In this document: in pieces, positions 34,491 to 51,392 of the stretch
Layout: each line of letters starts with the position of its first letter
How positions within the stretch are numbered: position 1 is the stretch's first letter
Source: a virus
Taxonomy: Duplodnaviria; Caudoviricetes
Length of the DNA stretch: 64,000 nt
Virus record (IMG/VR): IMGVR_UViG_3300048606_000120
Span: 45,518 to 109,517 of that record
Direction: 5' to 3' (one strand)
Made by a program: the position numbers and the translations under genes
The notes under the pieces: model-generated
Databases searched by the model: none
Told to the model about the DNA's origin: nothing
What the model saw: the letters and a program-made list of their open reading frames with translations, nothing else

Positions 34491-35123
34491 TTGTCCCTCC
34501 TGAGCTCGACGACGAAGTCGGTGCTCATGAAAGACGACGACCAAATCGTAAGAGCAGAAAATGCGGCGTGGTGGGAAGAGGAAGCTCGGTTCCAGAAACT
34601 CGCGGCTCGATGCGAGAGCATCTCGCTCGCTCACGGTTTTGCGAAAACGACGTGGGAGAACCTGCCGGCCAACCTGATGTTCATCGTCACGGAGGTAGAC
34701 GAGGCCTTTCACGCCCCGACCCGCGATGCTTTTTACGAGGAGCTCGCAGACATCGCGATCCGGATCCTCGTGCATCTCCATGCGCTGTGGGGTCCATGCT
34801 GGAGCTTGCGCCGCGCGGCGAACACGGCTCGTGTCGAGTGGCCGTATCCGGGCCTGCTTTACCACCCGCACTTGGTGTCGGTTGATCCGACGGTTGGCTT
34901 GCGGCTGGTGATCAACCGCGTTTGTGAAGCCGCGAAGTCGTGGCGTCTGGGCCATGGCCAAGTGGTGCAGGCCGACGTGCGAGTCTGCCTCGAGCAAGCG
35001 CTTGCGCAGTGCTTGAGCGTTACCAAGATGTGCGGGATCGACGCGCAGCGGGAGATCGACGCGAAGTGCGCGAAGAACGAAGGGCGGCCCCATCTGCATG
35101 GACGGCTCGAGGTGATCGGGTGA
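34491..35123 (+). CDS. MazG-like nucleotide pyrophosphohydrolase
   Basis: LMFIVTEVDEA..EELADIAIRI; C-terminal K..KNEGRP..HG. Confidence 0.8.
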   Translation: MSLLSSTTKSVLMKDDDQIVRAENAAWWEEEARFQKLAARCESISLAHGFAKTTWENLPANLMFIVTEVDEAFHAPTRDAFYEELADIAIRILVHLHALWGPCWSLRRAANTARVEWPYPGLLYHPHLVSVDPTVGLRLVINRVCEAAKSWRLGHGQVVQADVRVCLEQALAQCLSVTKMCGIDAQREIDAKCAKNEGRPHLHGRLEVIG

Positions 35124-36592
35124 ACACCCTGAACCTCTTGGTCACTGTCGACAACCGCATCCGGCTACCAAGCGAGACTCCGACCGAGCTCGTGAAGCGC
35201 CTGAAAGAGGTGACCACTCACCCGAATCCCGAGTATGGAAAGGCTCGCGCGTTGGGCCGCTGGGTCGGCAGTGTTCCGACCGAGATCAAGACGTGGCGCA
35301 TGGACGTACGAAGCACTGCAGCCGGCAAGCAGTTTTCGTTTCCTCGAGGCGTCGCTGGCCTAGTGCGAAGTCATGCGGCGAGCCTCGGCATCGTGATCCG
35401 CTGGTCAGACAAGAGGACGAGCGTTCCTGTCGACTGGAAGCCGTTTCTTGTCGAGCCGAGGCCTTACCAAAGTGAAGGGATCGCAGCATGTGTGGAGCGT
35501 GAGCAGGGTATAGTGAAAGCTCCTACTGGGTCGGGAAAAACCTCGATGGCTCTTGGAGCGCTCCCGCAGCTCAAGCAGAGAGCGCTCGTGATCGTGCGCG
35601 ATCGCAACTTGCTTGAGCAGTGGCTCGAGCGTGCGGAGAGCGAGCTAGGGCTGAAGAAGCGCGAGGTGGGAGTGGTGTCGGGCGGAAAGCGACGCATCGG
35701 CGAGCGGCTAACGCTGTCGCTCCAGCAGACGCTGTACTCGAAGTCGTTCCCGCTCGAAGAGTTCGCCCAGCAGTTCGGCGCGGTGCTGGTTGACGAGGTG
35801 CACGAAGCGGCAGCTCGGACCGTCAGCGAGACCGTGGACGCGTTTCCAGCGCGAGTGCGGCTCGGCTTCTCTGCCGATCACCGCAGGCGCGATCGGAAGG
35901 AGTTCCTCAGCGAGGACTTGTTTGGCGACGTGATCTTCGAGGTGAGTAAGCAGCAGCTCGAGGCGGAGAAGCACGTGGTTCCGGTCGTGGTGCGTCTTGT
36001 GCCGACTGCGTTCGCGGCCGATTGGTACGCCGATGCTCCGACCGAAGAGCGAGACTTCATGAAGCTGATCAGCGAGATGTCGGCAGATGAAGAGCGAGGG
36101 TTGCTCTTGCGCCGCGTCGTGCTCGAACTTGTGTCGTCAGGTTGCGCTCCGGTGCTCGTCTTCACTCATCGGCGTGAGCACGCGTCGCGGCTTGCTGAGC
36201 GCGAGCTGCCAGCCGATGGGGTGCCGACAGGACTGTTGCTTGGCAGTGCTGGCAGCGCCGTGCAGTTCGAGGAGAGCAAGTCGCTGCTGCTGAAGGGCGT
36301 GCTCAAGGTCGCAGTCGGCACGTTCAAGGCAGTTGGTCAGGGGATCGATTTACCGAACGTGATGGCGGGGGTTTGCGCGACTCCGATCGGCGCGAACAAG
36401 CAGTTTTTCGGCCAAGTCCGCGGGCGAGTGTGTCGAGTGTGGCCCGGCAAGCAGGTTGGCTATCTCTACTATCTTTGGGATGAGCAGGTCTTTCCGGACG
36501 CAGGACGAAACCTGTTGAACTGGAACGATGGGCTCGTCGAGATTTTCGATCGGGCGAACAAGCAGTGGATGACGTTTCGAGGGTCTCCCTAA
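35120..36592 (+). CDS. SF2 DExH helicase
   Basis: RPYQ, APTGSGKT, DEVH, SAD, GIDLP, QVRGRVCR. Confidence 0.92.
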   Translation: MNTLNLLVTVDNRIRLPSETPTELVKRLKEVTTHPNPEYGKARALGRWVGSVPTEIKTWRMDVRSTAAGKQFSFPRGVAGLVRSHAASLGIVIRWSDKRTSVPVDWKPFLVEPRPYQSEGIAACVEREQGIVKAPTGSGKTSMALGALPQLKQRALVIVRDRNLLEQWLERAESELGLKKREVGVVSGGKRRIGERLTLSLQQTLYSKSFPLEEFAQQFGAVLVDEVHEAAARTVSETVDAFPARVRLGFSADHRRRDRKEFLSEDLFGDVIFEVSKQQLEAEKHVVPVVVRLVPTAFAADWYADAPTEERDFMKLISEMSADEERGLLLRRVVLELVSSGCAPVLVFTHRREHASRLAERELPADGVPTGLLLGSAGSAVQFEESKSLLLKGVLKVAVGTFKAVGQGIDLPNVMAGVCATPIGANKQFFGQVRGRVCRVWPGKQVGYLYYLWDEQVFPDAGRNLLNWNDGLVEIFDRANKQWMTFRGSP

Positions 36593-36613
36593 ACAGAACA
36601 CACGAGGTGCGAT

Positions 36614-36979
36614 GTGAGCACTGACGATGACTTCGAAGCTCGTGATGGCGACGTGTTGGTGGTTTCGTATCCTGAGGTGAAGATCCCGCTCGCTACGAAG
36701 TACAGCACTGTCACGATCGGCGGGCTGATCTACACGCGGCAGTTGCGCAGCAAGGACAGCCCGACCGAGGAATACCAGCGGGTCTACGCGTTCTTGAGGC
36801 ACATGGCAGAGGCTGACGCTCGCGCGAAGGTGCAGCAGTGGACCGAGGAGCTTGCGGCAAAGCGACCGCCACCGCTGCCGACGGCTCCGAAGCCGGTGGG
36901 TGAAGTTGTAACCTCGAGGTTACAACCCAGCGCAGCAGCTCCTGGCGGCGTCGTGCGGCCGAAGCCGGTGAGTCGGTGA
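36614..36979 (+). CDS. hypothetical protein
   Basis: GAGG RBS; contains palindrome copy 6 in frame (EVVTSRLQP). Confidence 0.65.
   Translation: MSTDDDFEARDGDVLVVSYPEVKIPLATKYSTVTIGGLIYTRQLRSKDSPTEEYQRVYAFLRHMAEADARAKVQQWTEELAAKRPPPLPTAPKPVGEVVTSRLQPSAAAPGGVVRPKPVSR
36905..36926. promoter_or_regulatory. conserved palindrome copy 6 (intragenic)
   Basis: Perfect 22-bp copy within Pro-rich tail, about 50 bp upstream of next gene. Confidence 0.85.
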
Positions 36980-37437
36980 CGATGCGCATCACCGACTTCG
37001 TGAATAGCTTCGACAAGCCCACAGGGCCGCGCTTGCGAATGAAGCGCGCCAAGCCGATGACGCTAGTCGAGATTGCGATCGACGATGCCAGGCGGCGCGC
37101 TGCAAGTGGTGAGTGGGCAGGCGCGAAAGGAGCGGTTCTTGTCGGTCTGTACGCGATGTGCCATCGCATGGTGTACGGCATCATCCCGAGTGAGTTGTTC
37201 GAGGTGCCGACGTTTCGTGCGGCTGCGAAGATGGCGGCCAAGGCTATGCACGAGCTATTCGGAGACGATCCGGCCGAGGTCGCCGCGTTCGTGAAGTGGT
37301 CGTGGCAGGTCGAGAAGCGCAAGAACGAGTGGGCTCAAACGAAGTCGGTCGACCGCAAACATCTGGGTTGGCGAGCGCAGTTCTGTAGGTCGCTGGAGAC
37401 CGATTACCGCATCTGGCAGAAGCAAGGGCGCCGCTGA
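36976..37437 (+). CDS. hypothetical protein upstream of DnaB (possible initiator or loader)
   Basis: 153-aa coupled ORF; function from position only. Confidence 0.6.
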   Translation: MTMRITDFVNSFDKPTGPRLRMKRAKPMTLVEIAIDDARRRAASGEWAGAKGAVLVGLYAMCHRMVYGIIPSELFEVPTFRAAAKMAAKAMHELFGDDPAEVAAFVKWSWQVEKRKNEWAQTKSVDRKHLGWRAQFCRSLETDYRIWQKQGRR

Positions 37438-37440
37438 GCT

Positions 37441-38901
37441 GTGGCGGTCTCGAAAGAGTTCGTCTACGACTCGTCCAACGAAGCACTAGTTTTGCGAGCG
37501 GCGATTGCGCTCGCGCGTGAGTCAGATCGCACGCAGTTCCGGGCGCTCGTGCATTCCATCGGAGAGGACGAGTTCCTCGTGGCTCAGCACTCTTCGCTGT
37601 GGCGTGTGCTGCGTCGCACCGCGGACGGGGGGCTCGAGTACACGACGGAGACCGTGCTGCAGCTGATGGCGGCAGAGCCATCAGAGGTCGACGTCAACTA
37701 TTTGGCTGAGCTCGAGAGGGCTGCAGTCTTGCCAGCGAACCTAGACTGGCACGTGCAAACGCTTCGTTGGGACGCGACGCGGGCACGAGTAGTGAAGAAC
37801 GGGTTGCCCGAGCTAGTTCGCGACTTGAGCGATCCGCGAGTGACAGTTGACCGTGCAGTCACGTCGGCTCGCTCTATTGTTCGAGCGCTCGAAGGCGGCG
37901 GCGGGCGTAAGTTCATTCATCGGCGAGAAGAGCTTGCTGCTGTTTATCGAACCGAGCTCGCTAAGCGGCGCGACCAAGGCAACTTCTACCCGTGTGGGTT
38001 TGAGCATGTTGATGGGCTGATGTCAGAAGGATTCAAGCCAGGCAATACGGCGATCATCACGGGCTTGTCAGGCAGCGGGAAGAGCACGTTTGCAGCGCGG
38101 CTCGCGATCAACCTAGCTCGTCTGGGAAGGCGGCCGATGATCTGTGCGTGGGAGATGGGCGGCACGTCCACGCTTGACGTCATTGTTTCGATGCTCACCG
38201 GCATCTCGCTCGACATCGTCATCAAGGGCACTTACAACGACCTCGACTGCAGGCGGCTGGAGCGCGCGAGCGATTGGGCGAACAAGAAGATCCTGTTCAT
38301 GGAGAACGCGTTCTTCGGTCAGCTCGCGAGCAGTGGTGGCGGCAGCAGCAGCAGTGACAGAAAGCAGAGGCGATCGAACGATCGCAACCTCGACATCTTA
38401 GAGGGCTACATCGCCGAAAGCGGCTGCGACGAGATCATTATGGACCTGTGGGATCGCATCCTCGCTGATCAGAATCCCGACGCGGTCACCGACGCCTTGT
38501 ATCGTCAGCAGAACATGCATCGGGAATACGGCGTACATGGGACGTTGCTCGTCCAGCTGCGGCTGAAAGACGTCGAGCGGCGCGCCGATAAGCGACCGAC
38601 TCGCGAGTCGATCAAAGGCGTCGGCACGTTCGTCGAGGTGGCCGATTTGATCTTCGGCGTGCACCGCGACGCGCAGTTCAAGGACGTTCCCGATAACACG
38701 ATCGAGCTCATCTGCTTGAAGCAGCGCAAAGGCCGGTCGAACTGGGCGGTTCGGTTCGGGTGGTGCGGTGAGATCTGCGAGATCAGCGGCGGCGAAGAAG
38801 TGCCCTACAACCCCGGGCTCGAGGCGACTGGAGACTACGGCGACATCGCAGATCCCTCTGCGATCCGTACGAGCCCGCGGAAGATGAATCGTCGCGATTG
38901 A
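37441..38901 (+). CDS. dnaB: DnaB-like replicative helicase
   Basis: GLSGSGKS, WEM, LVQL, KRPT..IKG.G..EVADLIFGVHR, KQR. Confidence 0.9.
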   Translation: MAVSKEFVYDSSNEALVLRAAIALARESDRTQFRALVHSIGEDEFLVAQHSSLWRVLRRTADGGLEYTTETVLQLMAAEPSEVDVNYLAELERAAVLPANLDWHVQTLRWDATRARVVKNGLPELVRDLSDPRVTVDRAVTSARSIVRALEGGGGRKFIHRREELAAVYRTELAKRRDQGNFYPCGFEHVDGLMSEGFKPGNTAIITGLSGSGKSTFAARLAINLARLGRRPMICAWEMGGTSTLDVIVSMLTGISLDIVIKGTYNDLDCRRLERASDWANKKILFMENAFFGQLASSGGGSSSSDRKQRRSNDRNLDILEGYIAESGCDEIIMDLWDRILADQNPDAVTDALYRQQNMHREYGVHGTLLVQLRLKDVERRADKRPTRESIKGVGTFVEVADLIFGVHRDAQFKDVPDNTIELICLKQRKGRSNWAVRFGWCGEICEISGGEEVPYNPGLEATGDYGDIADPSAIRTSPRKMNRRD

Positions 38902-39114
38902 GGACTGGTCGGCCGGCACACTAGATCGTCTTCCGCCCCACGAGCCGCTGGGAAGGACGCCGAAGAAGCTGAGCAGCCAGAGCAAGAAGAGCAGCAGCAG
39001 GACGACTAACGCGATTCGTTGGAACGGTTGGGGGAGAGGGATCAACGTGATGATCCAATACACGATGCCGCAGATGATCACGGCGATGAGCAGTTGAACG
39101 AGCATTGCGAACAT
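38398..39114 (-). CDS. small two-TM membrane protein (Thivi_2564-like N-terminus); 3' end uncertain
   Basis: LLIAVIICGIVYWIITLIPLPQPFQRIALVVLLLLFLLWLL; no stop before running antisense into dnaB. Confidence 0.5.
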   Translation of the reverse strand: MFAMLVQLLIAVIICGIVYWIITLIPLPQPFQRIALVVLLLLFLLWLLSFFGVLPSGSWGGRRSSVPADQSSIATIHLPRARTDRRGICDVAVVSSRLEPGVVGHFFAAADLADLTAPPEPNRPVRPAFALLQADELDRVIGNVLELRVAVHAEDQIGHLDERADAFDRLASRSLIGAPLDVFQPQLDEQRPMYAVFPMHVLLTIQGVGDRVGILISEDAIPQVHNDLVAAAFGDVAL

Positions 39115-39155
39115 AGCCAGATCATCTGCTTGCCGATCAGCGAGGAGCAACATCG

Positions 39156-40106
39156 ATGACTTTTCGCGATCGAGTTGACGTGGAGAAGCTATTGCAGGCA
39201 CTCGGCGTGAAGTACGAGCGACGCGGGCGCAAGTTGCAGGCGTTGTGTCCCAATCCAGATCACCAGGACTCGAGTCCGTCTTGGGCGATCGTCGACTCGC
39301 CAGGCGCGTCGACGCACGCAGGGCACCACTGTTTTAGTTGCAAGTTTGGCGGCGGGCCGTGGGAGCTCGTGATGGCCGTTCGCGGCGTCGACGAAGCCGA
39401 GGCGTTCGCCTTCATGGGCGAGCTCGTGTCAGGCGTTGCGCGCCCCCAAGAGGGTGTGCCGCAGCTCGTGATCAAGCCGCCAGCGGCGCGTGTGGAGTAC
39501 GTGTTGCCGCGGGGAGTTCAGATCCCGTCGATTGACGGATCGAGCTGGCCCGAGCCGTTCGCGAAGTACCTCGAAGTGCGGGGCGTCACCCAGGAGCAGA
39601 TCGATCGCTGGAGCATCGGGTTCGCGAAGTGGGGTCCGCTCGCTTGGAGGGTGGTGATCCCCGTTCATACACGCGGGCGTTTGGTGGCACATGTAGCCCG
39701 GTCGATTTTTAGGGACGGTTCGAAGCGCTACGACATGCCTACCAAGGGTCGAGCGTCGCCGACAATGGCAGTGTTCGGCGAGCCGCTGATTGATCCTGAG
39801 CTTGGGGTTTTGACCATCGCAGAAGGTTCGTTCTCGATGCTTGCCCTCGAGCGAGCGGGTGCGCCGAATCCTGTTGCGCTGCTCGGCAGCGATTGGTCGC
39901 CGGCGAAGGCCGCGATCCTGACAGCTGTGCAGTGGTCGCATGTGATCGTTGCGACGGATCCCGACATGGCAGGCGACAAAGTCGCTCGGGCCATTTCAGC
40001 GTCCTTTCGAAAAGCGAAAATATCTCGACTGCGGATGGACCAAAGTCCGGATGATTGCGAACTGGGTGTTTTGCGAGCAAGGACCCGAGAAGTTCTCGCA
40101 GCGTGA
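39156..40106 (+). CDS. DNA primase (CHC2 zinc finger plus TOPRIM)
   Basis: CPNPDH..HCFSC; AEG, ATDPDMAG. Confidence 0.88.
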   Translation: MTFRDRVDVEKLLQALGVKYERRGRKLQALCPNPDHQDSSPSWAIVDSPGASTHAGHHCFSCKFGGGPWELVMAVRGVDEAEAFAFMGELVSGVARPQEGVPQLVIKPPAARVEYVLPRGVQIPSIDGSSWPEPFAKYLEVRGVTQEQIDRWSIGFAKWGPLAWRVVIPVHTRGRLVAHVARSIFRDGSKRYDMPTKGRASPTMAVFGEPLIDPELGVLTIAEGSFSMLALERAGAPNPVALLGSDWSPAKAAILTAVQWSHVIVATDPDMAGDKVARAISASFRKAKISRLRMDQSPDDCELGVLRARTREVLAA

Positions 40107-40134
40107 AAAATAACCGTTGTTTGCAGGCGCTCCG

Positions 40135-40160
40135 GAGTTGTAACCTCGAGGTCACAACTC
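40135..40160. promoter_or_regulatory. conserved palindrome copy 7 (one mismatch)
   Basis: GAGTTGTAACCTCGAGGTCACAACTC, intergenic, upstream of -10-like TACCAT (40173). Confidence 0.8.
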
Positions 40161-40229
40161 GGACGGCTGCAGTACCATCCCGCATACGGGACACGTCGAC
40201 GCAGGGCATAGCCCCAAAGGACGACTGCA

Positions 40230-43088
40230 ATGACGAGCACAAGCCCAACCGAGGGCATGAACCCCGAGCAATCCCAAGCGGTCCTGCACGATCACACTCC
40301 GCTGCTCGTAGCAGCAGTTGCTGGGTGCGGGAAAACGAGGGCTCTCACGCATCGAGTCGTTCAGCTCGTGGCGAGCGGAGCAGAGCCAGGCCGCATACTC
40401 GCTGTCACTTTCTCGGTGAAAGCCGCGCGCGAGATGAACGATCGTTTGCAGCGGCTCGACTGCGAAGGTGTGCGAGTCGGGACGTTCCATTCGCTTGCGC
40501 TGCAGATCGTGCGCGAAGAGTGGTCGGAGTGCCGCAGCTGGACGATCGACGACTCCGAGCGTTACCGCATCTGTGTGAAGGATGCGGTTTCGTTCCGCTA
40601 CATGGATTGGAAGTCAGCGGACGTCACTTACTTGATGAGCTATATCAGCCGCTGCAAGGCAGCGGGCGCCTATCCGGCAGATGCGAAAGCTTTGGTTATC
40701 GCGACCGAGATGTACCGCAAGCGTCCCACTGCGGGGCGTGAACCAACTCTGTGCAGGCAGGCTTACGAAACAGCTGAGATCGTACGGCACGAGCGGCAGC
40801 TGCTGACTTTCGATGACATGCTGCTCGACGCTTGGGCTCGATTGTCGACTGACGAAGCAGCTCGCACGCGGTGGGCGCAGCGGTGGGATCACGTGCTGCA
40901 AGATGAGGCACAAGACGAGAATTTCGTGCAGCACGAGCTTGGCGCCATGCTCGCCCGAGACCACCGCAGCTACACAATAGTGGGCGATCCGGCACAGTGT
41001 CATCCAGCTGGGACGCAGATCGAGATTGCTGACGGTGTGACGGTGCCGATCGAAGGGCTTCAGGACGGCGATCTGATTCGCGGTTGGAATCAGAACTCCC
41101 AGAAGATGATCGGCGGGAGACGCGTGCAAGTCGCGGTTCGTCAGTTTAGCGGTCGGTTGCGCGACGTGTTCGTAGCGGGCCGAGTGGTGCCGGTCACACC
41201 GAATCACAAGTTCGTTGCACGATGGACGACGCGGGAGTCAGGGGTGTTGGTCACGTACCTCATGCGTCGCGAGGGATTCGGGTACAGAGTCGGATGGTGC
41301 AAGCTGTTCGCTCACGGCGGCGAAGGGCCGATCCCCTTCCATTTGGCAACGCGAGCTCGCATCGAGAAGGCCGATGGAGTTTGGATTCTGAAGGTGCATC
41401 AGACACGTACTGACGCGAGTGTGTACGAGAGCATTGTTGCTGCAATGTACGGCTTGCCGACAGCGACGTTCGAACCTGTTCATGGGACTGAGCATCAGAC
41501 TGCAGATGCGATTGCTCGCATCTTCGAGGCTGTTGCTGACGAAAATCGAGAGCGCGGTGAGCGGTGTTTGGCAGTGCACGGCCTCGATTCGCAGTTGCCG
41601 TTGTACCCATGGCCGAATCGAGAGGCAGCTGGCCCTCAAGGGCGACGCACTATCTTCCAAGTGCATGCGGCGAACCTTTTGCCTGATTTGATGTGCGTGC
41701 CGCTTCCTGATCGAGTGGGTGCATGGTCGCCTGTCGAAGGAGTGCGCCCTCGTTCGGTTGAGAGCGTAGCCGTCTACTCTCTTCAGGTCGCTGAGGATGA
41801 GACGTATGCGGCGAACGGCATCGTCGTGCACAACAGCATCTTCCAATTCCGAGGCGCAAACCCGCAGTCGATGCTGAAGTTCGAGCAAGAGTGGGGCGCT
41901 CGTGTCGTGCGCATGGGACTCAACTATCGCAGTTGCGACAGCATCATCGAGATCGCCAACAAGACTCTCGACGCGATGCCGCCGGCGACCCATTTGGGCG
42001 TGAAGATGATCGCGACTCGAGGTGAGCCGGGCCGTGTCAGTGCTGTTGTGTATGAGGACTTCGATGCCGAGGGCGAGGGGGTCACCGAGAAGATCCTGGA
42101 GCTGCACGAGGACGGCAGGAAGTGGTCTGACTGCGTCGTGCTGTTTCGGACTAACGCTCAGAGCCGCGGCGTCGAGGAGTCGCTGCTCGGTGCGCGAGTG
42201 CCGTACCAGGTGATTGGCGGAACGAACTTCTACGACCGGCGAGAAGTGAAAGACTTGCTCGCTTACCTGCGGGTCGCAGCGGGGCGAGGCGAGTTTGACG
42301 ATGTGCGGCGATCGATCAACACGCCGTTTCGGTACTTGGGTAAGGCGTTCTTGGATGGGCTGGAGCGAGTGATTTCCAGCGCAACGCCTGAGCAGATCCC
42401 TGGGATTGTTCGAGCCTACGTGATGGATCCTGCCACTCGGTTGCAGCAGCGGCAGCGCACGTCGGCGATTGTCTGGTGTGAGCTCATCAATGGGGTTTCG
42501 GCGGCCATCGCGGCAGGCGCAGCTGAGAACGAACTCGGGGGCATCGTCGAGACGTCCGCAACGTGTGTGGAAGCGTCGCCCGCTCGGCTTCTCGAGAACC
42601 TCGTAGCTGACTTGCGGTATTCCGAGTGGTTGACGCGCGACGAAGGCACCGAAAGCCCGGAGAATAACCGGGTGTCGAATGTGCGTGAGCTCATCCGAGC
42701 AGCAGGGCGGTTTCCGACCGTTCCAGAGCTGCTCGACTACGTCGACGACACGCTCGAGCGAGCGGCCAGGGCAAAGCGTGAGGCGCGTTCGAGCGACGTC
42801 GTTACGCTCTGTTCGATCCACAGGTCAAAGGGCCTCGAGTGGCCGATCGTTTTCGTGCTGGGCGTGAACGACAAGATCCTGCCGCACGCGATGGCGGAGG
42901 ATCCCGATGAAGAGCGGCGGCTCTTTTACGTGGCGTGCACTCGGGCTCGCGATGTTCTCGAGCTTTCGTGCGTGGCTAAAGCGGCGGTCAGCAATCGGGT
43001 CCTCGACCTCGAGCCGTCTCGCTTCTTGGCGGAGGTCGGGATCAAGCTCGGCGTAGCAGCGAACGTCGTGCCAAAGGAGATCGGCTAA
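40230..43088 (+). CDS. uvrD: UvrD/PcrA SF1 helicase with intein
   Basis: AGCGKT, DEAQD, GDPAQ/SIFQFRGA, NYRS, HRSKGLEW, EERRLFYVACTRAR. Confidence 0.95.
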   Translation: MTSTSPTEGMNPEQSQAVLHDHTPLLVAAVAGCGKTRALTHRVVQLVASGAEPGRILAVTFSVKAAREMNDRLQRLDCEGVRVGTFHSLALQIVREEWSECRSWTIDDSERYRICVKDAVSFRYMDWKSADVTYLMSYISRCKAAGAYPADAKALVIATEMYRKRPTAGREPTLCRQAYETAEIVRHERQLLTFDDMLLDAWARLSTDEAARTRWAQRWDHVLQDEAQDENFVQHELGAMLARDHRSYTIVGDPAQCHPAGTQIEIADGVTVPIEGLQDGDLIRGWNQNSQKMIGGRRVQVAVRQFSGRLRDVFVAGRVVPVTPNHKFVARWTTRESGVLVTYLMRREGFGYRVGWCKLFAHGGEGPIPFHLATRARIEKADGVWILKVHQTRTDASVYESIVAAMYGLPTATFEPVHGTEHQTADAIARIFEAVADENRERGERCLAVHGLDSQLPLYPWPNREAAGPQGRRTIFQVHAANLLPDLMCVPLPDRVGAWSPVEGVRPRSVESVAVYSLQVAEDETYAANGIVVHNSIFQFRGANPQSMLKFEQEWGARVVRMGLNYRSCDSIIEIANKTLDAMPPATHLGVKMIATRGEPGRVSAVVYEDFDAEGEGVTEKILELHEDGRKWSDCVVLFRTNAQSRGVEESLLGARVPYQVIGGTNFYDRREVKDLLAYLRVAAGRGEFDDVRRSINTPFRYLGKAFLDGLERVISSATPEQIPGIVRAYVMDPATRLQQRQRTSAIVWCELINGVSAAIAAGAAENELGGIVETSATCVEASPARLLENLVADLRYSEWLTRDEGTESPENNRVSNVRELIRAAGRFPTVPELLDYVDDTLERAARAKREARSSDVVTLCSIHRSKGLEWPIVFVLGVNDKILPHAMAEDPDEERRLFYVACTRARDVLELSCVAKAAVSNRVLDLEPSRFLAEVGIKLGVAANVVPKEIG
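40998..41834 (+). mobile_element. intein (279 aa) in UvrD motif III
   Basis: Starts CHPAGT, block B TPNHKF, ends VVHN followed by Ser; removal restores GDPAQSIFQFRGA. Confidence 0.95.
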
Positions 43089-43090
43089 AA

Positions 43091-43993
43091 ATGAGGATGC
43101 GAGTCCGTCGAGCAGTTTCTCCCGATCAGCTTACTTTGCCCATCGTCGGAGAGCTGGCGGAACGACCGTTTGCTGGTCGCATGCGAGTTCGGCGCGATGT
43201 TCAACTGCTGGAGTTGCTGCCGAAGCAGTCGCCCGCGAACGATTCGCCGAAGAAGAGTTGGAAAGGGGATCTGCATGCTGTGAAGCAAGGCAAGCTGCAG
43301 TTTGCGGTGTTGGCCAAGCGGCATCGCGCACTCATGTGCGCGATAGCTCGACCGTGGCTAGGCAGGTGTCCGCCGAACGTGGGTCTAGAAGATTTGGCTC
43401 AAGAGATCTTGCTCGAGGTCTGGCAGGCGATCGAAGTTTGGGATTCGGAGCGAGGTACGCCTTTGCTCAACTATGTTCGGGGGCGGATTCGTCATCGCAT
43501 GCTCGCTTTCACTCACAAGTTGATTCGCGGCAGCGAGAAGGACGGGCGATATCTTCTGCAGCAGATCATCGAGGAGAAGGTGGTCAAGGTTTACGGCGCA
43601 GGCGAGCATCCCGAGCAGTTGGATTTCGTGCCTGTCACGCTACCAGTGGACGACGATTGTGACGTCGCGCAGCTGGCGGCGTTAGTTGTCGGAGGATTAC
43701 CTTCCAAGCAGGCGCGTGTGGTTGCAGGGTTGCTCACTGGTGAACAAACCGACTCAGTCACCGAACGCGTCTATGGTAGTAAATGTAAGCTGCAACGAAA
43801 AGCTGCACTTCGTGCGTTCGCAGCGGCAACTGCTCTCGTACACTCTTCTGGAGAGCCAGAAGAAAATGGTCAAAGGACGAAAGAAACTCATGCGCACCAA
43901 AGCACCACCTGCTCCCGCAGCAAAGAAAACTTCTCGGCCGCCGGCAGCAGTCGCCAGCAAGCCACCTGCGCCTCTCACCTTGGTCAAGGGTAA
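43091..43993 (+). CDS. sigma-70 family sigma factor
   Basis: EDLAQE..VWQAIEVWDSERG.PL.NY...I region 2; degenerate region 4. Confidence 0.75.
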   Translation: MRMRVRRAVSPDQLTLPIVGELAERPFAGRMRVRRDVQLLELLPKQSPANDSPKKSWKGDLHAVKQGKLQFAVLAKRHRALMCAIARPWLGRCPPNVGLEDLAQEILLEVWQAIEVWDSERGTPLLNYVRGRIRHRMLAFTHKLIRGSEKDGRYLLQQIIEEKVVKVYGAGEHPEQLDFVPVTLPVDDDCDVAQLAALVVGGLPSKQARVVAGLLTGEQTDSVTERVYGSKCKLQRKAALRAFAAATALVHSSGEPEENGQRTKETHAHQSTTCSRSKENFSAAGSSRQQATCASHLGQG

Positions 43994-45008
43994 TCGGACC
44001 ATGGTCCTTGCTGACGGCAAGACTCGGGCGAACCCAGAGGTGATGCGCAAGGCGGCGAAGGTTCTTGGGGTAAAACTGCCGAGCGTTCGTGGGGCGAAGT
44101 CTGATCAAGAGTTGCTGGGAAACCTGCGATTGGAAGTCAGCAAGCGGGTTGCGAAGCTGGATGTAGGCGATCACGTCAAGTGTGGCGTCTGCGGCGAAGT
44201 GGCGACCGACGACACGCCGTACTGCCCGTTTTGCGGCGATGAAGGCACCACCGAAGAGGCAGCTGCAGCGGCAACCGGAGCAGCGATCGTGCCTGCCGCT
44301 GTGGGGGTGGGAATCGCCAAAACTCCTGTGCCGACCGCGAACGTCGAGGTCGCAACTGTGGTGCTCGCTCAGGACTTGGATGCTCTGCTCGAGAAGATCC
44401 GAGAGCTGAAGCACGCGCAAGTCAGCATGTCGTATGAGATCGGCGTGCTCTGCAGAGAGATTCGCGACAAGCAGCTTTACAAAGCGCGTGAGTACAAGAG
44501 CTTCAGTGCGTTCGCTGCCAAGGAGCTGCCCTTCGCGCGTGAATCTGCGTTGAGCCTGATCGCGATCGTCGAAAAGCACACGAAGGAGGATTACGACCGG
44601 ATCGGCTACGCCAAGCTGCGGGTCATATTGGCCGTGAATGACGATGCGGCCAAGACTGAGCTGCTCAGCGCGGCTCGCGAGGGCGCTACCACGAAGCAGC
44701 TGACCGAGCGTGCAGCGCGAGCCAGCACGCCGCCGAAGAGGCTGTCATCCGGGCCCGAGAAGGAGAAGGGCGAGAAGATCACCCTCCTCGGCAGGATCGG
44801 CGCGCGCAATCAGGTGGTGCGCTTCCACGATCTGAAGACTCAAGAAGTCATCGAGTCGGTTGGCACGTTCAAAAACGTCTCGGCTGATGTTTACGGCGAG
44901 CTCGAGATCGCTGACGGTGTGTTCGTGCAGATCGGTTTGCGCGTGAGCGACGAGAAGGAGCTCAAGGGTTTGACGGTTCGGTTTGTCCGACCGACCGCTG
45001 ACGAGTGA
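43866..45008 (+). CDS. putative DNA-binding protein (zinc ribbon plus DUF3102-like domain)
   Basis: CGVC..CPFC; EIG..REIRDKQLYK..YKSF..F...EL. Confidence 0.6.
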   Translation: MVKGRKKLMRTKAPPAPAAKKTSRPPAAVASKPPAPLTLVKGNRTMVLADGKTRANPEVMRKAAKVLGVKLPSVRGAKSDQELLGNLRLEVSKRVAKLDVGDHVKCGVCGEVATDDTPYCPFCGDEGTTEEAAAAATGAAIVPAAVGVGIAKTPVPTANVEVATVVLAQDLDALLEKIRELKHAQVSMSYEIGVLCREIRDKQLYKAREYKSFSAFAAKELPFARESALSLIAIVEKHTKEDYDRIGYAKLRVILAVNDDAAKTELLSAAREGATTKQLTERAARASTPPKRLSSGPEKEKGEKITLLGRIGARNQVVRFHDLKTQEVIESVGTFKNVSADVYGELEIADGVFVQIGLRVSDEKELKGLTVRFVRPTADE

Positions 45009-45019
45009 ACTACGTCTGA

Positions 45020-47761
45020 GTGGATCTCGTATCTGGCTGGTCTGACGACACGCACGTCTATCTCGTAGAGCGACCTGACGGCGGCGACGCGGTGAAGGTT
45101 CGAAGGATGCGGGCCAAGTGGTCTGCATTCTTCACCGGGCTCGACGACAAAGACCGTCTCGCACTGCAGCGGACGCGCGAGGTCATTGGACTGTCGACGC
45201 AGGGGCAGTACACCCGGGTCGACTTCCGAAACAAGTGGGCTCGCAAAGACATTTGCTGGAAGTTGGGTCAAGCGATCGAAGGAGCGCGCGCCGCCGGCGC
45301 TCTCGACGCTGCGATCCTCGAAGCAGACGTGAACCCGCTGCGTCGGTTTTTGAGCGACTACGGCACAGCGAACGTGTCGACGAGTCCTCGCTGCGCTTGG
45401 TTCGACCTGGAGACTGACAGCCGGCGGTCATTCCTCGATGCGACCGAGCACGGCACTGCAAGGATCCTGTGCTGGTCGATTGCGACGTTGGTAGACGGCG
45501 AGTCGCGCATGGTGGCGAGCGGGTTGCTCGAGGCAGACACAGACGAAGCCGAGCGTCGCTTGATCGAAGATTTTCTCGACGCGTGCCGCAGCTATGACGT
45601 GCTACTTGCGTGGTCTGGCGACGGGTTCGATTTTCCTGTGCTTGCGCTGCGCGCCGACAAGCTTCGAGCGAAGCAAGCGGGCATGCGGCCCTTGTGGAAC
45701 AGGTGGTGCTGGCTCGACTGCCTCGAGGTGTTCAAAAAGTACCACGCTCATGTGCACGAGTCGGGCGAGGAAAAGACGAGCTTCAAGCTCAACAACATCG
45801 CTCAGGTCCTGTGCGGCGAGGGCAAAAAGGAGTTCGCGGTCTCGCGCACCTGGGAGTCATGGGCTGCTGGTGGAGAGGAGCGACAGCGCCTGTTGCTCTA
45901 CAACCAGCAGGACACTCTGCTTATGCCGAAGATCGAGGCTCGAACTGGGTACGTAGCCCTGCACGTCGCTGTGTGCTCGGTCACTCGGTGCTTCCCAGAT
46001 AGCCGCTCGCTGATGGCGAGCCAGCAAGGGGATGGCTTCTTGCTGCGTCTCGGCGAGATTCACGGGCATCGCTGGCCGACGAAAAAGGGCGTGGAGAATG
46101 TAGAGCAGTACTCGGGCGCCTATGTGATGGAGCCGTCGAGGACCGGCATCATCGAGAACGTCCACGTCGCAGACTTCGCTGCGCTGTACCCGTCGATCAT
46201 GCGTAGTTGGAACATCAGCCCAGAGACGGCGCTGTGGCAGCGCCAGCCTGATCCGCAGGAGGGTAGCTGTCGGCTGCCATACTCTGATCTTGTGCGCTTC
46301 TCGAAGGCAGCTCGGGGCATGTTTCCGCGGGCGCTTGATGATCTCGTTGTGAAGCGAGCCGAGTACTCTCGTCGGCAAGATGCGGCCGAGCCAGGCTCGG
46401 ACGAGTGGGAGCGGTACAAGCGGTTGTCGGGGGCCTACAAGATCGTCGCCAACTCGTTCTACGGGATCATGGGCAGTCCCTACGCCCGGTTCTTCAGTTC
46501 CACTGCTGCTGAGGCGGTGACGCAGACGGGGGCATGGTTGATCAAGCGAGTCGCAGCAGCGAGCAAGGAGAAGGGGCTCGATGCGTTCTACGGCGACACA
46601 GATTCTTGCTTTGTGAGCGGCGACAGTGGGCAGTTCGCCGAAGTTGTGCGAGGGCTGAACGAGTCATGGCGGCCGCTGTTGACCGAGCTCGGCTGCGACG
46701 ACTGTCACATCAAGCTTGAGTTCGAGAAGTCATTCAATCGGATCGTGCTCGTCAGTGCGAAGCGCTACATCGGGCGCTTCTCGATTTACAAAGGCAAGCA
46801 GGTTTCCGGCAAGAAGGTCGAAGTCAAAGGTCTCGAGTACAAGCGCGGCGACACAATGCGCTTCGCGCGCACGATGCAGAAGGAGTTGATCGACTTGCTC
46901 CTAGGGGATGAGGTGCCATCGCTCGACGTGGTGCGCGAGTTCGTCGCGGGCTGGAAGGATCGTGTTCTGAACGGCGTGCTGACGGTGGAGGACATCGTGC
47001 TGAGTCAGAGCGTCAAGGGGCTCGACGAATACGCTGAGCGCTACACGGTGGCTCAGTGCTCGGGCTCTTCGGGCACTGGCAAGAAGAAGCGGAAGTGTGG
47101 CTACAACTTCGGATCGACGGTTGTGGTGGGCCCTGGCAAGTGTCCGCGGTGCGGTACCGAGCGCAAGCAAGCGTCGCCTCCTGTGCATGTTCGGGTTGCC
47201 AAGGTACTTGAAGAGCGCGGCGAAGAGATCCGCGCAGGCACTCGAATCGAGTACTTGATCGTGAGCGACGAGGGTGATCGCATCGATGCTGTTCCGGCTC
47301 GCGACGAAGGAGCTCTTGCCAAAATCAACCGGCACTACTACTGGAACTCGAGGATCTACCCGCCGACGGCGCGCGTGCTCGAGAGTGCATTTCCGAGTGA
47401 AGATTGGGTCGAAACCAAGGCTCAAAAGAAGGAGCGCCGAAAGCTCGCTGCGATCGAGAAGAACCGAGGTGTGTCGGGACCTTTGTTCGACTGGCTAGCT
47501 CGAACTGGCAGTGAGTCGAGTCGGGTCGTCATTACGATCGATCGCGACCTCGACGGCCAAATCGACATGGCTGCTCTCAAGAGCGTGTTGGTTGCTCGGC
47601 GTGGAGATCGGCCCGTCATGCTGAAGCTTGTCGATGCAAGCGGCGAACAGGAGTTGAACCTCATGCGCTACCCAGTGCAGCTTGACGACCAAACTATTTT
47701 GGAACTCGAGCGCATTTGTGGACGAGGTTCTGTGTCCTTCTCGACGTTGCGCGGCAACTAG
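45020..47761 (+). CDS. polB: family B DNA polymerase
   Basis: Exo DLETD, FDFP, YNQQD; pol DFAALYPS, KIVANSFYG, YGDTDS, KRY. Confidence 0.96.
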   Translation: MDLVSGWSDDTHVYLVERPDGGDAVKVRRMRAKWSAFFTGLDDKDRLALQRTREVIGLSTQGQYTRVDFRNKWARKDICWKLGQAIEGARAAGALDAAILEADVNPLRRFLSDYGTANVSTSPRCAWFDLETDSRRSFLDATEHGTARILCWSIATLVDGESRMVASGLLEADTDEAERRLIEDFLDACRSYDVLLAWSGDGFDFPVLALRADKLRAKQAGMRPLWNRWCWLDCLEVFKKYHAHVHESGEEKTSFKLNNIAQVLCGEGKKEFAVSRTWESWAAGGEERQRLLLYNQQDTLLMPKIEARTGYVALHVAVCSVTRCFPDSRSLMASQQGDGFLLRLGEIHGHRWPTKKGVENVEQYSGAYVMEPSRTGIIENVHVADFAALYPSIMRSWNISPETALWQRQPDPQEGSCRLPYSDLVRFSKAARGMFPRALDDLVVKRAEYSRRQDAAEPGSDEWERYKRLSGAYKIVANSFYGIMGSPYARFFSSTAAEAVTQTGAWLIKRVAAASKEKGLDAFYGDTDSCFVSGDSGQFAEVVRGLNESWRPLLTELGCDDCHIKLEFEKSFNRIVLVSAKRYIGRFSIYKGKQVSGKKVEVKGLEYKRGDTMRFARTMQKELIDLLLGDEVPSLDVVREFVAGWKDRVLNGVLTVEDIVLSQSVKGLDEYAERYTVAQCSGSSGTGKKKRKCGYNFGSTVVVGPGKCPRCGTERKQASPPVHVRVAKVLEERGEEIRAGTRIEYLIVSDEGDRIDAVPARDEGALAKINRHYYWNSRIYPPTARVLESAFPSEDWVETKAQKKERRKLAAIEKNRGVSGPLFDWLARTGSESSRVVITIDRDLDGQIDMAALKSVLVARRGDRPVMLKLVDASGEQELNLMRYPVQLDDQTILELERICGRGSVSFSTLRGN

Positions 47762-48414: not shown

Positions 48415-48678
48415 ATGCGAATCAACGTCTACAGTCAGGAACTAACGAACGAAGTCAAACTCCTTGAAAAGGAGAGCAATACTGGGCTGGTTTACAGCGC
48501 GGTGCAGTTGATTTTGCATTCGTCTCCGACCCTCCATCATCCGCCTCAGGATGATGATCGGAGTGCGGTGACTATATGGCTACCGAAGAGCGTGCAGCGC
48601 CGGGAAGAACTGGCCGACACGCTTCGCAGGATGGCGGTCATGGTGTTGTCAGCGCGCAACGAAACTGGACTGGATTGA
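48415..48678 (+). CDS. conserved phage hypothetical protein
   Basis: MRINVYSQEL..DDD.SAVT.W. Confidence 0.65.
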   Translation: MRINVYSQELTNEVKLLEKESNTGLVYSAVQLILHSSPTLHHPPQDDDRSAVTIWLPKSVQRREELADTLRRMAVMVLSARNETGLD

Positions 48679-48703: not shown

Positions 48704-50254
48704 ATGACGGCAGAAGCAGGGCTTGGGATCGCTGCGTTCTTGAAGCACAACAGCGACGCTGGCGGCGGCGGACAATGGCTTCGGCAGTGGCGCAAGAAGG
48801 GCGTCGGTGAGGTCACGATTTGGCTGCACACGCTAGCTCCGATCGTGCCGTGCTTCAGTCACTCGTTCATGTTCGAGGACGAGTACGAAGACAAGCAGAC
48901 CGGCAAAACGACGCCGACTCTTCGTTACCCGCGCTTCGTTAGTCCGGATGCTGAGATCGTTCACCGAAATCAGTACTTCCGGAACGACGACGGAACGATG
49001 CAAGTTCCTCCGGATCTAGACCCGTTCTTGCTGTTGCGTGAGTGGCTGCGTTTCGGCGCCGAGCACCTCAGTCTCGAAGAGCCGATTTTCAAGTGGCATG
49101 ACGCAAAAGAGCGGCGTGATGTCGTGTGGGAGCGCGGCGAGCTAAGTGGGCTGGTCAAGCGCGGTCAGAAGAACTTTGGGCATTCGCTCGACACAAAGCT
49201 TGAGTACATTTACGTCGTCGTCGACAACGATGCCGTGAGCGAAGGCCCTGTTTTGGCGCGTGAAGGGAAGCTCGTCAGCCAGAAGATTGGGGAAGTCATT
49301 AAGCAGCAACAGAAGCAGTGGGGCGACAAGCAAGGCGATCCGCTGCAGCACCCGTATGCATTCCAGCTAGTCGGCGAGGACGCGTCATCGCCGATGAACG
49401 CTTACAAAGCGTTCAAAGCAGAGCGGGCCGAGTTTACCGAAGAAGTTTGGGCGCAGATTTCGTGCGAAGACTTCCCAGATCCGTTGAAGCATGGGCAGCC
49501 GGTCGAAGGCGACATGGAGAAGCTTCGCGAGCTGTTCGAGCAAGCGGCGCAAGTGGAGCTGCCAATCGATCAGATCTTCTCGGACGATCCCGCAGTGCGA
49601 CGCGATCTGACGCGAAACACAGGCGGCAATCGGCCAGCGCCACGAGCATCGAAAGCGTCGGCGACAAAGGTTGCTGCTCCGACTCAAGCTCAGCGTCCTC
49701 CAGTTCCGCAGCGAGGCGGAAAGCCAGCGGCTGCAGCAGCTCCTCAGACGAACACTGGTGCGCCTCAGGTGCGCCGCAAGAAGGTCGATAAGCCGGCTGA
49801 GCCGCCGCCTCCAGAAGTGGAGGTCATTCCTTGCGCTGATTGTGGCAAGGACATGCTTGCAACAGACACGAAGTGTTCGTCGTGCGGCGCAGAGTACGAG
49901 CTGATCGTCGACGAAGCACAAGCGGCGGTTGCAGTACCAACGCTGCCGGCTGCGAATGCGAACGGGAAGCCGAGTACAAGCACGAAGCCAAAGTCGGCGG
50001 CAGCGCCTAAGCCGATTCCTGCAGCGTCGCCGTCCTCGAGGCAGCCGTCCTTGCCGCACACCGATTCGGCGCAAAAGGAAGTTGTAGCCAACTGCTGGTC
50101 GTGTGGAGCTTTGCTCAACGGCAAAGACAACTGCCCGTCGTGCGGCATCGAGCAAGGAGATGATCTTCCGTTCATTTTCAACGAGTGTGAAAGCCAACTC
50201 AGCGGCATCGGGGAGCGATGGAACTCCAAGCTCACTGCTCGTCAAATCATCTGA
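48704..50254 (+). CDS. putative ssDNA-binding protein with zinc ribbons
   Basis: Position before RecA, low-complexity linker, DDLPF motif near C-terminus. Confidence 0.55.
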   Translation: MTAEAGLGIAAFLKHNSDAGGGGQWLRQWRKKGVGEVTIWLHTLAPIVPCFSHSFMFEDEYEDKQTGKTTPTLRYPRFVSPDAEIVHRNQYFRNDDGTMQVPPDLDPFLLLREWLRFGAEHLSLEEPIFKWHDAKERRDVVWERGELSGLVKRGQKNFGHSLDTKLEYIYVVVDNDAVSEGPVLAREGKLVSQKIGEVIKQQQKQWGDKQGDPLQHPYAFQLVGEDASSPMNAYKAFKAERAEFTEEVWAQISCEDFPDPLKHGQPVEGDMEKLRELFEQAAQVELPIDQIFSDDPAVRRDLTRNTGGNRPAPRASKASATKVAAPTQAQRPPVPQRGGKPAAAAAPQTNTGAPQVRRKKVDKPAEPPPPEVEVIPCADCGKDMLATDTKCSSCGAEYELIVDEAQAAVAVPTLPAANANGKPSTSTKPKSAAAPKPIPAASPSSRQPSLPHTDSAQKEVVANCWSCGALLNGKDNCPSCGIEQGDDLPFIFNECESQLSGIGERWNSKLTARQII

Positions 50255-50255
50255 A

Positions 50256-51392
50256 ATGCCAAAGCTTCGAAAAAAAGTGGCAGCTGTAGCTGACCCTGTG
50301 GAGCGCGATGCTGTTCCGTTGCCGCTGCGTCGGGCTATGCCGCTTCCGAAGAACTGGCAGCGAGCCGATGAAGCTCTCGATAAGATCGAGTCAGTCTCGA
50401 CGATCTTCCCAGACTTCAATCGAGCAACGCGATGCGGCGGGCTGCCGGTCAATCGGATGCATACCGTACATGGACCTACACATGGGGGAAAGACCGCATT
50501 TGTTTTAGGCTTAGCGAAGAGCTTCCTCGACGGCGGTCATTCGGCTGCATACGTGGATGCCGAGCACGCTACCGCGCACGAGTTTGCCAGCGAGCTGCTC
50601 GGCGAGCTGAAGCAGCACGATCGTTTCTTCGGTCGAGTGCCAGCCACCTATGAAGAAACGATCGACGCGGTCGACGAGTTCCTCAAGATGATGACTGAGT
50701 TTCGGAAGGACTCGCCCGAGACAAAGTCGATCGTCTTGGTCGACTCGATCAATAAGCTCACGCCAGAGCGCGAGCTCAAGAACGTGTTGAAGAGTGGCGG
50801 CGAGGAGGTCAGCAAAGGTCATGCTGGTCGCTATCGAGCTGCGGTCAATAAGTCATGGCTCGATCACCTGTCTCCTCGGCTCAAAGCAGCTGGCTGCGCG
50901 ATGGTGTTCATTGCTCAAGAGCGGGAAGGCTCAGACGACAAGCCTTGGGATGCCGACGGTGGCGTGGAGATCAAAGGCGGCGAGGCACTGTCGTACGACG
51001 CTTCGTTGCTCATCCGCGTCAGCAAGGCTTTTCCGATGCGCGATCCTTCGACCGCGGCAAAGGATTACCCAAAGGGGAAGATCATCGGCTTCCAGCATCG
51101 CGTGCGCATCTACAAATCGAAGGTCTCCCACATGGATGGAGCTTTCACCGACTGTGTTTACCACTTCAGCAATGGCACGCAGACGCCGCCCGGGTTCGAC
51201 TTGCAACGTGATGCGATCTACGTAGCGAAGGAGCTTGGGCTCGTGCAGGTGAACGGCTCGTGGCTGAGCTGGAAGAAGCATCGATGGCAGGGCGAGATGA
51301 AGGCCGCTCAGTGGCTCGCTGAAAACCAACTTGCTTTGTTCGGCATGGTGAAAGAAGTCGAAGAGCGCTTGGCCGCTGATCGGAAGCGATGA
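50256..51392 (+). CDS. recA: RecA/UvsX-like recombinase
   Basis: GGLP, GPTHGGKT, YVDAEH, LVDS, IAQER, GG.AL.Y.A. Confidence 0.92.
   Translation: MPKLRKKVAAVADPVERDAVPLPLRRAMPLPKNWQRADEALDKIESVSTIFPDFNRATRCGGLPVNRMHTVHGPTHGGKTAFVLGLAKSFLDGGHSAAYVDAEHATAHEFASELLGELKQHDRFFGRVPATYEETIDAVDEFLKMMTEFRKDSPETKSIVLVDSINKLTPERELKNVLKSGGEEVSKGHAGRYRAAVNKSWLDHLSPRLKAAGCAMVFIAQEREGSDDKPWDADGGVEIKGGEALSYDASLLIRVSKAFPMRDPSTAAKDYPKGKIIGFQHRVRIYKSKVSHMDGAFTDCVYHFSNGTQTPPGFDLQRDAIYVAKELGLVQVNGSWLSWKKHRWQGEMKAAQWLAENQLALFGMVKEVEERLAADRKR

Follow-up and report, generated by a model that had tools for sequence, protein, structure and literature searches.

The polymerase gene and its C-terminal tail

The window analysed here is a stretch of 64,000 nucleotides from an uncultivated tailed virus of the class Caudoviricetes and represents the right-hand 64 kb (positions 45,518 to 109,517) of the complete virus record IMGVR_UViG_3300048606_000120, which comprises 109,517 bp with direct terminal repeats. 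It contains the gene of a family-B DNA polymerase (PolB), in which the catalytic part is followed by a short peptide resembling the motifs that bind the bacterial sliding clamp (beta) and by a C-terminal domain (CTD) of 80 residues, which is in all likelihood a diverged homologue of the tau-binding domain at the end of the alpha subunit (DnaE) of bacterial DNA polymerase III (Pol III). The features of the gene are as follows:

45020..47761 (+): gene of a family-B DNA polymerase with proofreading exonuclease; 913 amino acids, GTG start (open reading frame listing, Pfam, PHROG)
47057..47152 (+): zinc-ribbon-like insertion with four cysteines in the PolB thumb region, C680...C693...C708-P-x-C711 (residues 680-711)
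47471..47494 (+): clamp-binding-motif-like peptide VSGPLFDW in a disordered linker, core P821-L822-F823 at 47480-47488 (conservation, predicted local distance difference test score, pLDDT)
47519..47758 (+): CTD, very probably a homologue of the C-terminal domain by which Pol III alpha (DnaE) binds tau, residues 834-913 (AF2, Foldseek, VIA-align, profiles, ESM Atlas)

The catalytic part of the protein is that of a family-B polymerase. The Pfam family DNA_pol_B matches residues 340-672 with an E-value of 1e-47 and a score of 163 bits, the gathering cut-off being 23 bits, residues 146-305 correspond to a DnaQ-like exonuclease (Pfam RNase_H_2 / DNA_pol_B_exo2), and PHROG 262 (DNA polymerase) is matched with an E-value of 6e-59. 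In an alignment of 21 PolB homologues, the exonuclease motifs (D129/E131, D204, and Y294/D298) and the polymerase motifs (D385, K474, YGDTDS at residues 524-529 with D526/D528, and K581-Y583) are invariant; Exo I-III, motif A, motif B, YGDTDS, and KxY are all intact. Judged from these motifs, the product of the gene is an active proofreading replicative polymerase. The cysteine residues C680, C693, C708, and C711 of the thumb insertion are invariant in 21/21 homologues as well. The thumb is followed by a disordered linker, which contains the conserved PLF peptide, and then by the CTD. This tail had been quoted in an earlier, sequence-only reading of the window, and the quotation is correct: positions 47477-47761 of the plus strand encode GPLFDW, a short Ser-rich linker, VVITIDRD, ALKSVLVARRGDRPVMLKLVD, and YPVQLDDQTILELERICGRGSVSF, followed by the stop codon.

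The PolB relatives in isolated phages are distant (≤27% identity). Among cellular assemblies, the closest PolBs are archaeal (Hadarchaeota and Micrarchaeota, 25-27% identity), apart from one contig of a bacterial metagenome-assembled genome (MAG), whose PolB shares 36% identity and which is probably a binned phage. The position of the Hadarchaeota and Micrarchaeota proteins as closest cellular PolBs is a hint that the catalytic core, set among otherwise bacterial-type replication genes, is of archaeal-type origin.

The C-terminal domain and the preceding peptide

The tail of Escherichia coli Pol III alpha is composed of a clamp motif (at 920-924), an OB domain (at 960-1071), and the domain that binds tau (at 1079-1160) (PMC4703070), and the CTD of Pol III alpha is important for the binding of tau (PMC3919608). 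The sequence-only reading had likened the last approximately 80 residues of the phage polymerase to the DnaE C-terminus by eye, and this homology is now backed by fold comparison and by profile, profile-profile, and language-model searches. For residues 808-913, a model was calculated with AlphaFold2 (AF2) without templates and from an alignment of PolB relatives only. In this model the CTD adopts a beta-alpha-beta-beta-alpha-beta fold, the core of which has a pLDDT of about 88. In a Foldseek search against the PDB, ranks 1-8 were all occupied by Pol III alpha (Thermus 2hpi, 4iqj, and 3e0d; E. coli 5fku and 5fkv), the E-values ranging from 2e-3 to 0.2 and the 74-85 aligned columns being 22-24% identical. 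VIA-align, an aligner independent of Foldseek, was used to compare the CTD model with 48,161 chains and superimposed it on the alpha subunits of Thermus aquaticus (2hpi_A 1120-1205, Z 8.8, 84 aligned residues, root-mean-square deviation 3.4) and E. coli (5fku_A 1072-1160, Z 7.3, 86 aligned residues), the next fold after Pol III alpha following at Z 3.4. This E. coli segment corresponds to the published tau-binding domain. The predicted domain thus has the fold that the alpha CTD displays in solved structures.

At the sequence level, the relationship became apparent only by means of profiles and structure, as the last 94 residues used as a single sequence gave nothing useful in Pfam, PHROGs, and the PDB sequences. 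Among PDB sequences, the best match of A3, an alignment of 11 phage sequences restricted to the CTD, was the C-terminal end of a 1184-residue Pol III alpha chain (7pu7_A 1126-1181, E 0.032), followed by Thermus alpha. When A3 was searched against 1.84 billion representative proteins, 40 matches at E ≤ 1e-3 were obtained. Apart from three fragments of PolB and a pair of repeat artefacts, these (about 30) are short proteins matched at their C-terminus with E-values from 5e-6 to 8e-4 and scores of 35-42 bits. Eight longer matches were inspected, and in each of them a DnaE OB fold, HhH_6, or finger domain is located directly upstream of the matched segment. Aligned together, the DnaE tails retrieved by A3 correspond to residues 968-1181, 936-1158, and 994-1168 of three solved alpha subunits with E-values from 1e-31 to 2e-41. 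Full-length DnaE proteins presumably fall just above the E-value cut-off, because the score penalty of HMMER rises with target length. A comparison of the phage CTD with the DnaE tails by hhalign, which is partly circular in that the target set had been picked with A3, gave a probability of 98.8% and an E-value of 6e-17 over 77 columns, with the signatures G-x-x-PV-x-L and E-x-x-x-G-x-G-x-V common to both groups. In the ESM Atlas, the clusters nearest to residues 832-913 are named Pol III alpha C-terminal domain (PF20914; score 0.94, 191/256 features shared). Sequence similarity to DnaE CTDs is thus statistically significant, with DnaE tails retrieved down to an E-value of 5e-6.

An alternative explanation for the likeness is convergence on the common ferredoxin-like beta-alpha-beta-beta-alpha-beta fold without homology. 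It would be in line with the frequency of this fold class, with the modest Foldseek E-values, and with the behaviour of the Pfam family PF20914 (DNA_pol_IIIA_C), which has no match at E ≤ 10 in the whole genome or in the 11 CTD sequences; the PF20914 model is narrow, as just one of 14 control genomes contained a match above the cut-off. Identity between the phage CTD and DnaE CTDs is only about 17-29%, and the canonical context of the domain in DnaE is missing, as the phage CTD follows a family-B thumb and a short linker and no OB, HhH, or PHP domain was found by the Pfam scan. However, generic ACT and ferredoxin-like domains do not exceed the Z-score of 3.4, as compared with 8.8 and 7.3 for alpha, the sequence-only profiles independently reach DnaE C-termini at library-wide significance, and both the hhalign result with its shared signatures and the language-model search agree. 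Convergence appears very improbable to us and is largely refuted already, and we conclude with high confidence that the CTD and its DnaE counterpart are homologues that have diverged.

Of the 21 aligned PolB homologues, 14 carry the CTD. In a maximum-likelihood tree of the polymerase core, which was midpoint-rooted, it occurs on both sides of the deepest split, and its pattern takes three or more gains or losses to explain, e.g., an old gain plus two losses. Where the domain is present, a set of G, E, G, and G residues is invariant and the mean column identity is about 48%, the polymerase cores themselves being only about 50% identical. In the most distant clade with a CTD, a proline-rich basic linker of 45-65 residues lies between LPLF and the CTD; peptide and CTD therefore behave as separate modules. 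Around the polymerase of the CTD-less phages the genes follow in unchanged order, and within 10 kb to each side of it no gene shares the gains and losses of the CTD. Neither in the genome studied here nor in the 10 kb to each side of the CTD-less polymerases was a second copy of the CTD found, or one standing alone. At the sensitivity of A3 and within the 1.84 billion proteins searched, the domain was detected only in DnaE and in this PolB family.

Beyond the thumb, three positions stand out in the otherwise variable tail of the 21 homologues: P821 and L822 are invariant, and F823 is kept in more than 90%. The family consensus of the peptide is DLPLF and fits x-L-x-L-F, and the phage studied here shares a G-P-L-F variant with two relatives. 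The segment has a pLDDT below 50 in the AF2 model and is thus predicted to be disordered, and the CTD-less relatives end 4-15 residues past the motif (e.g., ...DDLPLFAGFRS or ...VLPLFGDDVG), which is the position typical of a clamp-binding tail. A disordered or terminal site and conservation among orthologues, two properties of beta-clamp motifs, are therefore both found for the PLF peptide. As the bacterial consensus QL(S/D)LF tolerates variation (PMC9690074) and beta-clamp motifs are present in bacterial PolB groups (PMC12926913), it is plausible that the PLF segment is a beta-clamp-binding peptide, of a generic rather than a DnaE-type kind. The sequence-only reading had proposed a DnaE-type clamp motif; what stands of this is a conserved clamp-motif-like peptide in front of the CTD, and what has to be given up is the assignment to the DnaE type, since the motif is generic, reads DLPLF in the family, also occurs in the CTD-less relatives, and is degenerate in the phage studied here.

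These distributions bear on a further explanation, according to which only the PLF peptide matters and the CTD, having no specific replisome partner, is either a remnant that can be dispensed with or a module that serves stabilisation or oligomerisation in general. The lack of the CTD in 7 of the 21 relatives, its multiple gains or losses on the tree, and the retention of the peptide in all 21 homologues are what would be expected in this case. The good conservation of the domain where it is present and its retention on both sides of the deepest split in the family speak against it and argue for purifying selection, and we consider a CTD without a specific partner quite improbable.

The replication module and possible docking to the host replisome

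The polymerase gene is part of a replication module, the further features of which are as follows:

34940..43993 (+): replication module upstream of PolB, consisting of a DEAD/ResIII helicase, a DnaB-like helicase, a DnaG-type primase, a UvrD-like helicase, and a sigma-70-region-2 protein (Pfam)
48704..50254 (+): gp32-like SSB (a protein that binds single-stranded DNA) of 516 amino acids with two zinc ribbons and an SSB-Ct-like DDLPF sequence at 50159-50173 (AF2, Foldseek)

The order continues from the upstream module with a zinc-ribbon protein, PolB, a 210-residue protein, the 516-residue protein, a RecA/UvsX-like recombinase, SbcD, and SbcC, and the same order is found in related metagenomic phage contigs of about 100 kb, both with and without the CTD. 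The phage genome has a G+C content of 60.6% and contains one tRNA gene. The bacterial-type primase, the sigma protein, and the putative docking modules of bacterial type point to a bacterium as host. A search of 301 genomes from the phylum of the MAG contig mentioned above with the CTD profile gave noise-level matches only (best E 0.002).

A sliding clamp or clamp loader of phage origin had not been seen in the window by the sequence-only reading, and this holds when the search is widened to the complete genome. With Pfam models at E ≤ 10, the 109,517-bp genome contains no match to the three DnaN domains, to PCNA, or to gp45, and likewise none to the clamp-loader AAA+ module DNA_pol3_delta2 or to tau domain V, while control genomes matched the clamp, loader, and tau models. 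Three neighbouring proteins were considered as hidden clamp or loader proteins and rejected: the protein of about 336 residues upstream of PolB contains helical and beta domains besides a zinc ribbon, the downstream 210-residue protein looks helical or coiled-coil as judged from its sequence, and the 516-residue protein has the fold of a gp32-like SSB.

The latter assignment rests on an AF2 model of residues 1-310 with a pLDDT of 91.7, for which the top Foldseek matches in the PDB are the cores of RB69/T4 gp32 (E 3e-4); annotated phage SSBs are among the best viral matches in the BFVD. The core domain is followed by a Pro/Ala linker and two zinc ribbons. No match to the 516-residue protein was found in isolated phages. 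In the SSB family (91 homologues), the sequence [DE][DE][IVL]PF forms the C-terminal end in 38 of 44 members checked. Bacterial SSBs use their C-terminal tip (SSB-Ct), DDDIPF, for contacts with chi, a subunit of the clamp loader, and with further proteins of the host (PMC3045619, PMC5872125), and the DDIPF ending of the phage family is a second indication that the host DnaX complex is addressed by these phages.

The phage encodes its own helicases, primase, SSB, and recombination genes and no detectable clamp, loader, or tau; therefore, the most likely mechanism is one in which the polymerase docks to the host machinery in three steps. The host DnaX complex would load host beta clamps onto phage primers, the PLF peptide would tether the phage PolB to beta and thereby confer processivity, and the DnaE-derived CTD would link PolB to the clamp loader of the host through its tau arms, at the place usually occupied by alpha. 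The gene, the conservation of its motifs, the fold and homology of the CTD, and the absence of the clamp and loader families, on which this model builds, are what the analysis shows. To these we add the binding of beta, the binding of tau, and competition with the host alpha as the parts that we infer, and for the model as a whole our confidence is about evenly balanced between its being right and wrong.

Besides the low identity of the CTD to its DnaE counterparts and the missing match to PF20914, several points weigh against the three-step model. In E. coli and Thermus, tau has unrelated C-terminal domains, which differ in the way they bind alpha (PMC4703070); with tau domains that differ between lineages, binding of tau is not transferred automatically by homology. 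The DnaB-like helicase of the phage may not be engaged by host tau, and the Pfam models could miss a clamp or loader of the phage that has diverged very far. The seven relatives without a CTD have the same replication module, and the domain must therefore be dispensable in some lineages. In the phage studied here, the peptide S-G-P-L-F has neither the Q1 nor the L2 of the QL(S/D)LF consensus, and the DDLPF of its SSB is not C-terminal but followed by 26 further residues, an extension which may impair the function of the SSB-Ct tip; extra residues also follow the motif in the relative P0079, in which the Phe is likewise not C-terminal.

It is also conceivable that the captured DnaE-derived CTD was repurposed and binds a phage partner (the DnaB-like helicase, the primase, or the SSB), so that the phage would couple its own replisome without host tau. 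The coupling of gp5 to gp4 in phage T7 offers an analogy. A full helicase-primase-SSB set encoded beside the polymerase favours such a partner, as does the far divergence of the CTD from cellular DnaE CTDs; moreover, the lineage-specific modes of tau binding (PMC4703070) imply an evolutionarily plastic surface of the domain. On the other hand, the CTD-less relatives keep the gene order and no gene within 10 kb covaries with the CTD, no second or stand-alone copy of the domain occurs within 10 kb of the polymerases, and a phage clamp loader is lacking that could load the clamp implied by the PLF peptide. We regard a phage partner of the CTD as unlikely, although less so than a CTD without any specific partner.

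If docking to the host is accepted, it can be extended to a hybrid replisome built on three pieces of mimicry, namely, the clamp peptide, the captured tau-binding domain of alpha, and the SSB-Ct-like DDIPF. A PolB that occupies tau would displace the host Pol III alpha and shut down host replication while the phage replicates. This wider reading is tentative, and we are inclined to doubt it more than the docking model itself.

Some further observations concern the neighbouring genes. The conserved protein of about 336 residues just upstream of PolB (43989-45005, plus strand) combines a zinc ribbon (CxxC...CPFCGDEG) and a helical domain with a beta domain at its C-terminus, and its position makes an origin-binding or replication-initiation protein possible. 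The UvrD-like helicase (40230-43088, plus strand) has 952 residues as compared with 662-760 in its relatives, and a weak match of residues 441-535 to Intein_splicing (E 0.0057) suggests a possible mini-intein or another insertion. Between the genes of the 210-residue protein and the SSB, at about 48415-48645 (plus strand), a segment of approximately 200 bp shares 70-74% nucleotide identity with hypothetical small genes of Burkholderia, Xanthomonas, Ralstonia, and Gordonia phages; it has no Pfam family and was the only part of the DNA that matched isolated phages in a blastn search. The open reading frame of the RecA/UvsX-like protein is listed at 50103-51392 (plus strand) from a GTG at 50103. 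Its start is more likely the ATG at 50256, directly past the stop codon of the SSB gene (50252-50254).

Relation to known systems

A PolB with a DnaE CTD is not described in surveys of PolB diversity (PMC7544198), of bacterial polymerases (PMC12926913), and of Pol III alpha architectures (PMC3919608), and targeted full-text literature searches revealed no published description of this architecture. We rate the B/C domain combination as new and the phage replicase with host-replisome docking modules as a known kind of system. Family-B and family-C replicases are unrelated and thought to use separate accessory machineries, and the polymerase described here would be a natural adaptor between both. 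If the binding proves true, a virus without clamp and loader genes would have a route to processivity and to the coupling of leading- and lagging-strand synthesis, host-replisome takeover would have a new route, and the CTD would be a tau-binding module, minimal and portable, with which the assembly of replisomes could be studied or engineered. As sister lineages have repeatedly lost the CTD, they offer a natural comparison for the contribution of tau tethering.

The closest parallel to the tail is that of Pol III alpha (DnaE1), where a clamp-motif-like peptide is likewise followed by a CTD of the same fold and with detectable homology at the end of a replicative polymerase. Unlike Pol III alpha, the phage protein has a core of family B instead of family C and contains no PHP, HhH, or OB domain, and the peptide is located 10 residues before the CTD here and 45-65 residues before it in the distant relatives. 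The CTD-less phage relatives, which end just past LPLF, resemble E. coli Pol II in their clamp-motif tail. Bacterial family-B polymerases with a beta-clamp motif (groups G1 and G3, PMC12926913) share with the phage enzyme the proofreading PolB and a short hydrophobic motif in the C-terminal tail; in contrast to the latter, no DnaE-type CTD is described for them (PMC12926913, section 18), and PMC7544198 makes no mention of DnaE or tau.

Like gp43 of T4 and RB69, the enzyme is a family-B phage replicase with a C-terminal peptide for reaching the sliding clamp, which is putative here and is assigned to the C-terminal tail of gp43 by Shamoo and Steitz 1999, as cited in PMC7544198. T4-like phages have their own clamp (gp45) and loader (gp44/62), whereas the phage studied here shows neither and its polymerase tail bears bacterial-type modules. 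A reliance on host components, as proposed here for clamp and loader, is known from SPP1, which uses the host PolC, DnaE, DnaX, and DnaN (PMC5737612), and from Mu, where MuC enlists the beta clamp (PMC12867686). In contrast to these phages, in which the polymerase is that of the host or beta serves transcription, a phage-encoded PolB would plug into the clamp and the clamp loader of the host.

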